Assembly: GCA_964016885.1 (NCBI GenBank)
Contig: OZ024740.1
Coordinates: 301,258,001-301,322,000, forward strand
From: Eledone cirrhosa
Taxonomy: Eukaryota
DNA length: 64,000 nt
Direction: 5' to 3'
The position numbers and the translations under genes were made by a program. The notes under the pieces are model-generated. The model saw only the letters and a program-made list of their open reading frames with translations. It had not been told where the DNA came from and made no database searches. This document shows, piece after piece, positions 50,045-64,000 of this stretch (position 1 is its first letter; each line of letters starts with the position of its first letter).

Positions 50045-50229
50045 ATATATATGTATATATATATATATATATATATATATATATATATATATATATATAT
50101 GTATATATATATATATGTATATATATATATATATATATATATATATATATGTATATATATATATATATATATATATATATATATATATATATATATATAT
50201 ATATATATATATATATATATATATATATA
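50045..50229. repeat. long (TA)n tract anchoring the tandem array
   Basis: Direct inspection. Confidence 0.95.
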
Positions 50230-50352
50230 GATAATTTAATATATCAACTAACATAGGCGCACAGATGCACGTCCATGCCAGCAAATACACAGGTTATGTC
50301 ATAGTACCTAGGTGGTTCAATGCAGGAGGGTGCAGAACAATAATATAAAAGA
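50229..50352 (-). repeat. inverted partial copy (~124 bp) of the array unit
   Basis: Reverse complement of 50712-50835. Confidence 0.95.
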
Positions 50353-59300: not shown

Positions 59301-62300
59301 GCCATTTGACTGGAAGCAGTGAGAATTTCAGTACATAGAATCCAGTCCTCGCCTAGCTGTTCTTTCTACCGAATTATTATTTTTATATGAGCCGCCAGTG
59401 TCCGCGCATTGCCTGGAGGCTCAGCTGAGAATAGACTCCCTGATGACGCAATGAATTCTCGACAGTTGGATTATGTAACTGTCTTTATCCCATTGCAGAA
59501 ACTAATTAGTTGGAGTGAAAATTGAAGTAAGTAAGTAAAAAAATTTTTTTAAAGTTTTTTAAAAAAATATTTTCTTATTTTACGTCTTTTATATTATTGT
59601 TCTGCACCCTCCTGCATTGAACCACCTAGGTACTATGACATAACCTGTTTATTTGCTGGCATGGACGTGCATCTGTGCGCCTATGTTAGTTGATATATTA
59701 AATTATCTATATTTATCTCCAAATCACTGATTTGTCGAGCAAACCTGCCAAAATCACTTCAAAATTTTTTTTGGGGTGTTAGTAGGCGTCAGTCATCTTA
59801 CCATTCCATTCCTTCTAACTAGCCTCTATGTCACGTGATTGATTCTTTAGAATCGGCCATTTGACTGGAAGCAGTGAGAATTTCAGTACATAGAATCCAG
59901 TCCTCGCCTAGCTGTTCTTTCTACCGAATTATTATTTTTATATGAGCCGCCAGTATCCGCGCATTGCCTGGAGGCTCAGCTGAGAATAGACTCCCTGATG
60001 ACGCAATGAATTCTCGACAGTTGGATTATGTAACTGTCTTTATCCCATTGCAGAAACTAATTAGTTGGAGTGAAAATTGAAGTAAGTAAGTAAAAAATTT
60101 TTTTTAAAGTTTTTTTAAAAAATATTTTCTTATTTTACGTATTTTATATTATTGTTCTGCACCCTCCTGCATTGAACCACCTAGGTACTATGACATAACC
60201 TGTGTATTTGCTGGCATGGACGTGCATCTGTGCGCCTATGTTAGTTGATATATTAAATTATCTATATTTATCTCCAAATCACTGATTTGTCGAGCAAACC
60301 TGCCAAAACCACTTCAAAATTTTTTTTGGGGTGTTAGTAGGCGTCAGTCATCTTACCATCCCATTCCTTCTAACTAGCCTCTATGTCACGTGATTGATTC
60401 TTTAGAATCGGCCATTTGACTGGAAGCAGTGAGAATTTCAGTACATAGAATCCAGTCCTCGCCTAGCTGTTCTTTCTACCGAATTATTATTTTTATATGA
60501 GCCGCCAGTGTCCGCGCATTGCCTGGAGGCTCAGCTGAGAATAGACTCCCTGATGACGCAATGAATTCTCGACAGTTGGATTATGTAACTGTCTTTATCC
60601 CATTACAGAAACTAATTATTTGGAGTGAAAATTTAAGTAAGTAAGTAAAAAATGTTTTTAAAAATTTTTTTAAAAAAATATTTTCTTATTTTACGTCTTT
60701 TATATTATTGTTCTGCACCCTCCTGCATTGAACCACCTAGGTACTATGACATAACCTGTGTATTTGCTGGCATGGACGTGCATCTGTGCGCCTATGTTAG
60801 TTGATATATTAAATTATCTATATTTATCTCCAAATCACTGATTTGTCGAGCAAACCTGCCAAAATCACTTCAAAATTTTTTTTGGGGTGTTAGTAGGCGT
60901 CAGTCATCTTACCATCCCATTCCTTCTAACTAGCCTCTATGTCACGTGATTGATTCTTTAGAATCGGCCATTTGACTGGAAGCAGTGAGAATTTCAGTAC
61001 ATAGAATCCAGTCCTCGCCTAGCTGGTCTTTCTACCGAATTATTATTTTTATATGAGCCGCCAGTGTCCGCGCATTGCCTGGAGGCTCAGCTGAGAATAG
61101 ACTCCCTGATGACGCAATGAATTCTCGACAGTTGGATTATGTAACTGTCTTTATCCCATTGCAGAAACTAATTAGTTGGAGTGAAAATTTAAGTAAGTAA
61201 GTAAAAAATTTTTTTAAAAGTTTTTTTTAAAAATATTTTCTTATTTTACGTATTTTATATTATTGTTCTGCACCCTCCTGCATTGAACCACCTAGGTACT
61301 ATGACATAACCTGTGTATTTGCTGGCATGGACGTGCATCTGTGCGCCTATGTTAGTTGATATATTAAATTATCTATATTTATCTCCAAATCATTGATTTG
61401 TCGAGCAAACCTGCCAAAACCACTTCAAAATTTTTTTGGGGTGTTAGTAGGCGTCAGTCATCTTACCATCCCATTCCTTCTAACTAGCCTCTATGTCACG
61501 TGATTGATTCTTTAGAATCGGCCATTTGACTGGAAGCAGTGACAATTTCAGTACATAGAATCCAGTCCTCGCCTAGCTGTTCTTTCTACCGAATTATTAT
61601 TTTTATATGAGCCGCCAGTGTCCGCGCATTGCCTGGAGGCTCAGCTGAGAATAGACTCCCTGATGACGCAATGAATTCTCGACAGTTGGATTATGTAACT
61701 GTCTTTATCCCATTACAGAAACTAATTAGTTGGAGTGAAAATTTAAGTAAGTAAAAAATTTTTTTAAAAATTTTTTTTAAAAAATATTTTCTTATTTTAC
61801 GTCTTTTATATTATTGTTCTGCACCCTCCTGCATTGAACCACCTAGGTACTATGACATAACCTGTGTATTTGCTGGCATGGACGTGCATCTGTGCGCCTA
61901 TGTTAGTTGATATATTAAATTATCTATATTTATCTCCAAATCACTGATTTGTCGAGCAAACCTGCCAAAACCACTTCAAAATTTTTTTTGGGGTGTTAGT
62001 AGGCGTCAGTCATCTTACCATCCCATTCCTTCTAACTAGCCTCTATGTCACGTGATTGATTCTTTAGAATCGGCCATTTGACTGGAAGCAGTGAGAATTT
62101 CAGTACATAGAATCCAGTCCTCGCCTAGCTGTTCTTTCTACCGAATTATTATGTTTATATGAGCCGCCAGTGTCCGCGCATTGCCTGGAGGCTCAGCTGA
62201 GAATAGACTCCCTGATGACGCAATGAATTCTCGACAGTTGGATTATGTAACTGTCTTTATCCCATTGCAGAAACTAATTAGTTGGAGTGAAAATTTAAGT

Positions 62301-64000
62301 AAGTAAGTAAAAAATTTTTTTTAAAATCTTTTTAAAAAATATTTTCTTATTTTACGTCTTTTATATTATTGTTCTGCACCCTCCTGCATTGACCCACCCA
62401 GGTACTATGACATAACCTGTGTATTTGCTGGCATGGACGTGCATCTGTGCGCCTATGTTAGTTGATATATTAAATTATCTATATTTATCTCCAAATCACT
62501 GATTTGTCGAGCAAACCTGCCAAAATCACTTCAAAATTTTTTTTGGGGTGTTAGTAGGCGTCAGTCATCTTACCATTCCATTCCTTCTAACTAGCCTCTA
62601 TGTCACGTGATTGATTCTTTAGAATCGGCCATTTGACTGGAAGCAGTGAGAATTTCAGTACATAGAATCCAGTCCTCGCCTAGCTGTTCTTTCTACCGAA
62701 TTATTATTTTTATATGAGCCGCCAGTGTCCGCGCATTGCCTGGAGGCTCAGCTGAGAATAGACTCCCTGATGACGCAATGAATTCTCGACAGTTGGATTA
62801 TGTAACTGTCTTTATCCCATTGCAGAAACTAATTAGTTGGAGTGAAAATTGAAGTAAGTAAGTAAAAAATTTTTTTTAAAGTTTTTAAAAAAAATATTTT
62901 CTTATTTTACGTCTTTTATATTATTGTTCTGCACCCTCCTGCATTGCACCACCTAGGTACTATGACATAACCTGTGTATTTGCTGGCATGGACGTGCATC
63001 TGTGCGCCTATGTTAGTTGATATATTAAATTATCTATATTTATCTCCAAATCACTGATTTGTCGAGCAAACCTGCCAAAATCACTTCAAAATTTTTTTTG
63101 GGGTGTTAGTAGGCGTCAGTCATCTTACCATCCCATTCCTTCTAACTAGCCTCTATGTCACGTGATTGATTCTTTAGAATCGGCCATTTGACTGGAAGCA
63201 GTGAGAATTTCAGTACATAGAATCCAGTCCTCGCCTAGCTGTTCTTTCTACCGAATTATTATTTTTATATGAGCCGCCAGTGTCCGCGCATTGCCTGGAG
63301 GCTCAGCTGAGAATAGACTCCCTGATGACGCAATGAATTCTCGACAGTTCGATTATGTAACTGTCTTTATCCCATTGCAGAAACTAATTAGTTGGAGTGA
63401 AAATTGAAGTAAGTAAGTAAAAAATTTTTTTTAAAGTTTTTTTAAAAAATATTTTCTTATTTTACGTATTTTATATTATTGTTCTGCACCCTCCTGCATT
63501 GAACCACCTAGGTACTATGACATAACCTGTGTATTTGCTGGCATGGACGTGCATCTGTGCGCCTATGTTAGTTGATATATTAAATTATCTATATTTATCT
63601 CCAAATCACTGATTTGTCGAGCAAACCTGCCAAAATCACTTCAAAATTTTTTTTGGGGTGTTAGTAGGCGTCAGTCATCTTACCATCCCATTCCTTCTAA
63701 CTAGCCTCTATGTCACGTGATTGATTCTTTAGAATCGGCCATTTGACTGGAAGCAGTGACAATTTCAGTACATAGAATCCAGTCCTCGCCTAGCTGTTCT
63801 TTCTACCGAATTATTATTTTTATATGAGCCGCCAGTGTCCGCGCATTGCCTGGAGGCTCAGCTGAGAATAGACTCCCTGATGACGCAATGAATTCTCGAC
63901 AGTTGGATTATGTAACTGTCTTTATCCCATTGCAGAAACTAATTAGTTGGAGTGAAAATTTAAGTAAGTAAGTAAAAAATTTTTTTAAAAGTTTTTTTTA
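50353..64000 (+). repeat. tandem array of a ~555-bp non-coding HHR-containing unit (24 full units + 1 partial; runs off the window)
   Basis: Unit start agtaggcgtcagtc at 50353, 50908, 51463, 52019 ... 63108, 63663; copies differ by only a few substitutions. Confidence 0.97.
50562..50643 (+). ncRNA. type I hammerhead ribozyme (first of 25 copies)
   Basis: ACTCC-CTGATGA-c-GCAATG..[GACAGTT/AACTGTC hairpin]..CATTGC-a-GAAAC-TAATTA-GTT-GGAGT; predicted cleavage 3' of 50638. Confidence 0.88.

Follow-up and report, generated by a model that had tools for sequence, protein, structure and literature searches.

The 64,000-nt stretch of Eledone cirrhosa contig OZ024740.1 analyzed here (the window, to the whole of which all window positions refer) ends within a head-to-tail array of a 555-nt unit that encodes no protein and carries a hammerhead ribozyme motif in every copy. 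There are 25 CTGATGA cores in the window, spaced at 552–556 nt from 50567 to 63877, and the 23 remaining full units are 98.4–99.5% identical to a reference unit (50910–51464), with a unit GC content of 0.36–0.38. A preliminary description of this DNA had reported the array as non-coding, in agreement with the finding that no reading frame of at least 100 amino acids (aa; stop-to-stop) occurs within it, and as beginning at a (TA)n tract through an inverted partial unit, which is the arrangement observed (Table 1). The reported length of 13.7 kb holds for the window, but the array does not stop at 64000: it runs on to G000:C1:301327581 (window coordinate 69,581), where its right end lies in (TA)n, and comprises 35 hammerhead units and 19,353 bp. 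Both flanks are (TA)n and a target-site duplication is therefore unreadable. Judged from sequence, the unit probably represents a non-autonomous Penelope-like element, i.e., a retrozyme lacking long terminal repeats (non-LTR retrozyme), of which the copy at this locus later grew into a satellite-like array.

As the preliminary description had anticipated, copies of the unit are dispersed in (TA)n. The 39 candidates that were scored, out of 1,001, contained 210 matches to the unit, the full-length ones 96–99% alike, and exact matches to an 18-nt piece from the ribozyme's 3' half number 9,628 in the genome. Nearly all copies end, adjoining (TA)n, at one of two fixed positions, site A (+83; plus offsets are counted from the predicted ribozyme cut after window 50638) or site B (+197 to +205), and exact junctions with (TA) number 1,000 at the A end and 558 at the B end, compared to 0 for reversed controls. 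The 97 loci that were fetched (17 as best-scoring, 40 by A junction, 20 by B junction, and 20 by isolated ribozyme match) contain 60 head-to-head arm pairs, and 57 of these combine one A end with one B end; none has two A ends or two B ends, and three have a non-standard end. For loci picked by junction, one end was set by the selection while the partner end was free. A TA run lies within 40 nt of 146 of the 158 standard ends, a count that includes 60 loci picked by such a junction, and near 53 of 56 ends in the loci picked otherwise. The inversion junctions mostly have 0–3 nt common to both arms. Monomers, dimers, and multimers are all present, and identity among copies ranges from ~66% to 99%. 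No coding sequence is joined to the unit in any fetched locus, and all 20 isolated ribozyme matches are non-coding copies. The unit is thus more than the end repeat of an adjacent coding element, a conclusion with which its lack of similarity to the Penelope-like families examined below also agrees. The genomic copies describe a dispersed, protein-less family with young members in (TA)n and with its A and B ends on opposite arms. Separately, the paired A ends of three loci (L048, L071, and L072) face each other over a short (TA)n tract; L048 is the mirror-image double of a two-armed copy and probably arose by later inverted duplication or by repeat insertion into the same tract.

The motif in each unit has the parts of a hammerhead, with stem I (ACTCC/GGAGT), the CTGATGA core, an extra C, and stem II (GCAATG/CATTGC) with a long hairpin loop, followed by an extra A, GAAA, a stem III that forms a palindrome together with its loop (ACTAATTAGT), and a GUU triplet. 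The preliminary description of this motif is accurate in its details: ACTCC/GGAGT and GAAAC accompany the core in all 25 window units, the 3' arm of stem II is mutated to CATTAC in 8 of the 25, and the GTT triplet is missing only from the units with cores at 52788 and 60550. Across all 35 array units, 25 have intact stems I–III, nine have CATTAC in stem II, and one has CTTTGC; GUU is present in 33, and the two without it are among the nine CATTAC units. The CUGANGA core, GAA, A15.1–U16.1, and H17 of a type I hammerhead are all found, where H includes U under the criteria given in PMC3088659. Stem II does not close directly on the core, and instead an unpaired base flanks it on both sides (C after A9 and A before G12) in every one of the 56 distinct variants gathered. 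Neither these bases nor the stem III palindrome figures in the preliminary description. The search with hammerhead models suggested in the preliminary description came back empty, with no match in Rfam at the gathering score or at E values up to 10.

Several lines of comparison indicate that the ribozyme is under selection. The core and 3' half are nearly invariant among subfamilies that are ~70% alike, and stem II takes the forms GCAATG/CATTGC, GTAATG/CATTAC, GTAAGG/CCTTAC, and GAAAGG/CCTTTC across subfamilies. In a set of 13 sequences chosen for variety, 96.9% of cells were paired, with two stem II pairs and 12 cells changed on both sides; none of 500 shuffles reached this covariation score. 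Related sequences may beat such shuffles even without structure, but slid controls paired at just 30–49%. Stem III is invariant and so uninformative for covariation, and stem I varies on one side only. Predicted folds of the monomer (z = −4.04) and of the 96-nt ribozyme region (z = −2.96) are beyond chance. The hammerheads described for Penelope-like elements by Cervera and de la Pena (2014, PMC4209133) share an extra base between A9 and G10.1, a G10.1–C11.1 pair, low expected activity, and a palindromic helix III and loop that suggests action as a dimer. The 555-nt unit differs from the hammerheads described there in its GUU triplet, in a loop II that is long and structured, and in an additional A, never varying, that separates C11.1 from G12. 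No description of an insertion before G12 was found in the literature searched, including the portions consulted of PMC3088659 and PMC4209133.

Table 1. Features of the 555-nt array and of its first unit, in window coordinates
Feature	Position	Strand	Remarks
(TA)n target tract, left	50045–50228	n/a	Another (TA)n tract lies beyond the right end, past the window
Short inverted arm	50229–50352 (about)	−	Outer 3' end is fixed site B (~+199 to +205); inner end at ~+74
Direct arm of head-to-tail 555-nt units	50353–64000, continuing to G000:C1:301327581	+	Begins at ~+270; terminates within (TA)n at site A (+83)
Type I hammerhead of unit 1, recurring in each unit	50562–50643	+	Predicted cut after 50638
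A/U-rich hairpin between cut and site A	50654–50710	+	Predicted fold; length differs among copies
Site A (+83), fixed 3' insertion end	50710–50721	+	Ends TATAT; putative reverse-transcription priming site
Hairpin GTTCTG...GAACCAC directly 3' of site A	50726–50752	+	Candidate reverse transcriptase binding signal
Site B (+199 to +205), the other fixed 3' end	50829–50843	+	The stretch from A to B is the 'tail' of ~122 nt

The arrangement of the ends is shared with an autonomous element of the same genome. At window 27189–28465 lies a short copy, with two arms, of a Penelope-like element of very recent origin (related loci L145–L158) that has a period of 4,286 nt, tandem copies 99.7–100% alike, and a hammerhead located before an open reading frame (ORF) of 1,278 aa with a reverse transcriptase (RT), a C-terminal GIY-YIG domain, and an Asn/His/Thr-rich insert. 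The RT of this protein was assigned by similarity to RT fragments in the window, and Pfam at E 0.1 returned no family for the 1,278-aa sequence. In 21 of its 22 distinct loci there are two arms, each with a different one of two fixed ends that lie 60 nt from each other; 13 of these loci had been chosen for showing paired matches. The two arms often begin at nearly the same position, many copies are intact and identical, and the element is probably active. Because this autonomous element has the layout of the 555-nt family, the 555-nt unit would be copied by the same kind of enzyme, and the fixed ends, inverted arms, and (TA)n targets common to both bear out the Penelope-type mobilization that had been proposed for the unit.

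The more specific proposal that the RT/GIY-YIG families of the window supply the enzyme found no such backing, as no sequence similarity to the unit was found in the Neptune-like RT family (window 10766–12187), in an 834-aa family (window 3898–5719), or in the young 1,278-aa family (window 27189–28465), where matches to a relaxed motif are antisense. No partner was identified among the 50 loci of a GIY-YIG profile search, the hits of which are independent retrozyme insertions, or among the 20 isolated ribozyme matches and nine stretches with a shared hairpin motif. The sequence after the short arm in L023, which resembles a mariner remnant, was rejected as a partner, and the hammerhead beside a Neptune-type ORF in L194 belongs to a separate non-coding element. 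An ORF with RT and GIY-YIG, as an autonomous element would have, was found neither in the array nor joined to the unit in the fetched loci. The window holds broken copies of further Penelope-like RT/GIY-YIG families at 3898–5719 (+), 10587–12187 (−), and 30509–32080, and those of 3898–5719 and 10587–12187 have tens of thousands of candidate relatives, the best ~85–95% identical in protein.

The separate element in L194 (4810–5301) belongs to a second retrozyme-like family, with a unit of 459 nt, that is also present in L221 and in six of eight further loci (L213–L219 range). It has no overall similarity to the 555-nt unit, but in its hammerhead, too, stem II is flanked by unpaired bases, one per side, its fixed ends lie ~84 and 190 nt after the predicted cut (~105 nt apart), and one locus, L213, is an A+B two-armed copy. 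The hairpin 3' of site A, which is kept in subfamilies of the 555-nt family that are ~70% alike, recurs 3' of the A site in the 459-nt unit at the same distance from the cut. This hairpin is a candidate recruitment signal for the RT, with common descent as the alternative.

Among the 113 arms from loci not picked for score, the median length is 321 nt and the longest arm measures 1,698 nt. Variants within the present array mark repeated blocks of four and six units. In 17 other young loci, 12 of the 13 private variants found in some units only are confined to one arm, which fits duplication after insertion. The array looks to have expanded at the DNA level. It had been envisaged as a source of mobilized monomers, but its commonest private marker (527T), present in 16 of the 35 units, has a single match in the rest of the genome, so the array has not detectably seeded copies and would be a sink rather than a source. 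Features of satellite DNA are found here in the form of a long head-to-tail array with repeated blocks, as unequal exchange would shape it; a monomer that occurs mainly in long arrays is not. An array on a second contig (G000:C5:84646037–84668714), indicated by match positions alone, would comprise ~43 units of ~527 nt each, with a higher-order period of seven units. Its units belong to an older subfamily, and it suggests a second case of the element turning satellite-like. Block and higher-order structure in the two arrays and the absence of detectable daughters of the present one would suit ordinary satellite DNA spread at the DNA level, or detached end repeats of coding Penelope-like elements, with no RNA cycle of their own. 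Such an origin is highly improbable when set against the large number of short copies that are scattered through the genome, end at the fixed A and B sites, have arms joined head to head, and are truncated to varying degrees at the 5' side, and against a unit without joined coding sequence in all fetched loci; it is largely refuted for the family, and is still a fair description of how this locus grew.

The positions at which arms begin bear on the RNA that was copied. Arms were left out if identity at their 5' end was <84% or if their 3' end was non-standard; of the 147 that were counted, 111 cross at least one cut site. A cut linear monomer primed at +83 or +205 could give arms of at most those lengths, so the templates are uncut multimers or circles. 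Among the 143 arms available for the analysis of starts (two duplicate loci and one mirrored pair removed, and one start hand-corrected), 20 begin at −4 to +17, compared to 7.1 expected from a constant stop rate (scan-corrected P = 0.0035), and four begin at 0 to +1, compared to 0.64 expected. Clean starts at G+1 occur in L023, L038, and L084, and two of these arms are longer than one unit. The starts provide indirect evidence for ribozyme cutting in vivo at the predicted position and for the copying of linear RNA that is partly cut, and partly cut linear multimers account for the genomic record at least as well as circles do. Both arms start at the same phase in 11 of the 60 pairs (3.4 expected); the idea that the two arms copied one heterogeneous multimer in register is unsupported by the unit variants. 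A vestigial hammerhead that no longer cleaves, in a family moving solely as uncut read-through RNA, would agree with the non-consensus core, the GUU triplet, the empty Rfam search, the damaged stem II in 10 of the 35 array units, and the majority of arms that cross the cut site. It is improbable, however, in view of a core and 3' half that stay nearly invariant while the subfamilies diverge, of the compensated changes in stem II, and of the excess of arm starts at the predicted cut.

It should be noted that several points weigh against a retrozyme of the kind proposed here. Only four arm starts, from three loci, are located exactly at the cut, and most of the excess starts are at +7 to +17, where an A/T palindrome (+7 to +14) may itself attract junctions. 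The start window of −4 to +17 was picked after the data had been viewed, and arms of one locus are not independent. The core is non-consensus (extra A before G12, U17), and both departures would be expected to lower the activity of a hammerhead; the ribozyme may be nearly inactive. Eight of nine predicted Xenopus retrozymes did not cleave in vitro, as reported in a 2026 study (10.64898/2026.07.22.740005). The autonomous partner was not found, with no similarity to the unit in the Penelope-like families examined (~100 loci and window 1–50000), a coverage of ~100 Penelope-like loci in a genome that holds tens of thousands of candidates. The repeat-block patterns could in part be assembly errors. 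Finally, four private variants (one in L025, two in L031, and one in L032) are present in every unit of both arms, for which a single circular template fits equally well.

A circular monomer, on which rolling-circle reverse transcription would build long arms in a single step, is the template in a published model that the preliminary description had followed. Beyond the four private variants, which are part of a wider pattern of several loci with variants common to all units of both arms, this model accounts for the long arms that a linear monomer primed at +83 or +205 cannot yield and for the precise junctions between units, and circles have been demonstrated for the retrozymes of coral, mussel, and axolotl (PMC7229834). 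Multi-unit arms that start at G+1 (L023 with three internal sites and L038 with one) point instead to a ribozyme-generated 5' end on a linear RNA, though stalling of the RT at a ligation joint would also explain them. Most arms are shorter than two units, variants in subsets of the units of one arm require later DNA duplication, and Poseidon, a Penelope-like element of Anolis, uses uncut RNA in vitro (PMC11167929). On balance, the circular monomer seems unlikely to be the template, and the partly cut linear multimer is retained in what follows.

Comparison with known systems places the 555-nt unit within a recognized class. Non-LTR retrozymes are described as non-coding, low-GC tandem units with a type I hammerhead in each, present in thousands of copies from monomers to long multimers and with a proposed dependence on Penelope-like elements (PMC7229834; 10.64898/2026.07.22.740005), and the 555-nt family has the sequence features of such an element. 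Retrozymes of this class are further characterized by the lack of a primer-binding site and of a polypurine tract and by target-site duplications that, where present, exceed 4 bp; the insertion ends of the 555-nt family are internal unit sites abutting (TA)n. The preliminary description regarded unit size and copy number as unusually large; with published units spanning 51–972 bp and arrays reaching 300 units in length (Li, Clavereau and Pollet 2026, 10.64898/2026.07.22.740005), as well as coral arrays of up to 62-mers (Cervera and de la Pena 2020, PMC7229834), that claim falls. The unit is longer than the 170–400 nt of the coral, mussel, and axolotl retrozymes (PMC7229834) and lies inside the 2026 range. 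Penelope-like partners have already been proposed in both of these studies, and among 57 Xenopus families there are 24 with matches to known elements, which are Penelope-like in nearly every case (10.64898/2026.07.22.740005), whereas no homologous autonomous end repeat was found for the 555-nt unit. The accounts consulted of both studies do not describe insertion ends, while here two fixed ends, inverted arms, and (TA)n could be mapped. This is a new family of a known kind, with a 122-nt tail and a non-consensus core as variant features and an unusually clear insertion record. No description of the family or of retrozyme insertion ends was found in the literature searched, with Repbase, Dfam, and most subscription journals outside that search, and the family may be catalogued already.

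The same comparison extends to coding Penelope-like elements, for which an inverted truncated copy, a tail of 30–40 bp on one end, and a preference for (TA)n have been described (Craig et al. 2021, 10.1101/2021.04.23.441226; PMC3846280, on Adineta elements). Partial tandems, an inverted 5'-truncated copy, a tail on one end only, and the (TA)n preference are common to the endonuclease-bearing elements and the 555-nt family, which differs in having no ORF and in its tail of ~122 nt, compared to 30–40 nt in those elements and 60 nt in the autonomous element of this genome. Poseidon nicks and extends both strands in vitro, with two internal RT start sites that bound the tail, and acts as a predicted dimer; its main start is 111–118 nt into the ORF and its hammerhead cuts at 26 (PMC11167929). 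By subtraction of these figures, the main start lies 85–92 nt 3' of the hammerhead cut, a distance with which site A, at +83, agrees. Poseidon primes at non-homologous sites in vitro, in contrast to the TATAT-like sequence that matches the target at both ends of the 555-nt family, and no RNA-seq read is reported to end at the Poseidon cut (PMC11167929), whereas arm starts of the 555-nt family are enriched at its own predicted cut. In Chlamys, non-autonomous elements (MRC1 among them) are generally similar in their 3' end to an autonomous partner, and hammerheads are reportedly absent from the clade to which they belong (10.1101/2021.04.23.441226); the 555-nt family has hammerheads, and no such partner was found for it among the families examined.

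A cycle that would produce the observed copies can be proposed. Multi-unit copies would be transcribed, and a weak hammerhead would cut only some units at GUU to leave linear multimers, and possibly circles. The RT/GIY-YIG protein of a Penelope-like element would bind in the vicinity of the hairpin 3' of site A, a (TA)n tract would be nicked on both strands, and internal priming would occur on one strand at A and on the other at B, perhaps assisted by pairing of UAUAU with the target. Both cDNAs would stop at variable places, at the ribozyme-made 5' end more often than chance, and would be joined head to head via 0–3 nt of common sequence. Arms longer than one unit could then expand by duplication of unit blocks in DNA, to reach the 35 units seen here. 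A joint reading, which would revise the rolling-circle model, is offered tentatively as one possibility: that every two-armed insertion arises by priming in pairs, each target strand using a different one of two fixed RNA sites that lie 122 nt from each other; that the templates are linear multimers, the 5' ends of which are set in vivo by a deliberately weak, non-canonical hammerhead (extra A before G12, GUU); that the hairpin common to the unrelated 459-nt family recruits a Penelope-like enzyme without homologous ends; and that long arrays are satellites grown later in DNA.

These results touch on how animal retrozymes mobilize, on whether circles are the template, and on the role of the hammerhead for Penelope-like elements. 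The family includes young (99% alike) and old (~70%) copies with ends defined to the base, a probably active autonomous element with this layout is present in the genome, and the unit offers a 555-nt RNA with a mapped predicted cut and priming sites as well as a natural variant of the hammerhead core. While the class of element is already known, the locus exemplifies the conversion of a mobile element into satellite DNA.

Some minor observations concern the array and its surroundings. Eleven array units have a C-to-A change at unit position 359 (~+75), in a conserved motif just before site A, which may lower the use of those units as template. Among the contigs of four of five sequencing runs, many variants of the family occur in X1 and X2 and a few related pieces in X4 and X5, which have other organism labels; these contigs have no bearing on expression. 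An isolated hammerhead-like motif at window 49409–49465, ~800 nt to the left of the array, is unrelated in sequence to the unit and is probably a decayed element end. Further to the left, window 41779–41960 contains 79-nt pieces, in tandem and inverted, with a small hammerhead motif of another family and adjoining (TA)n.

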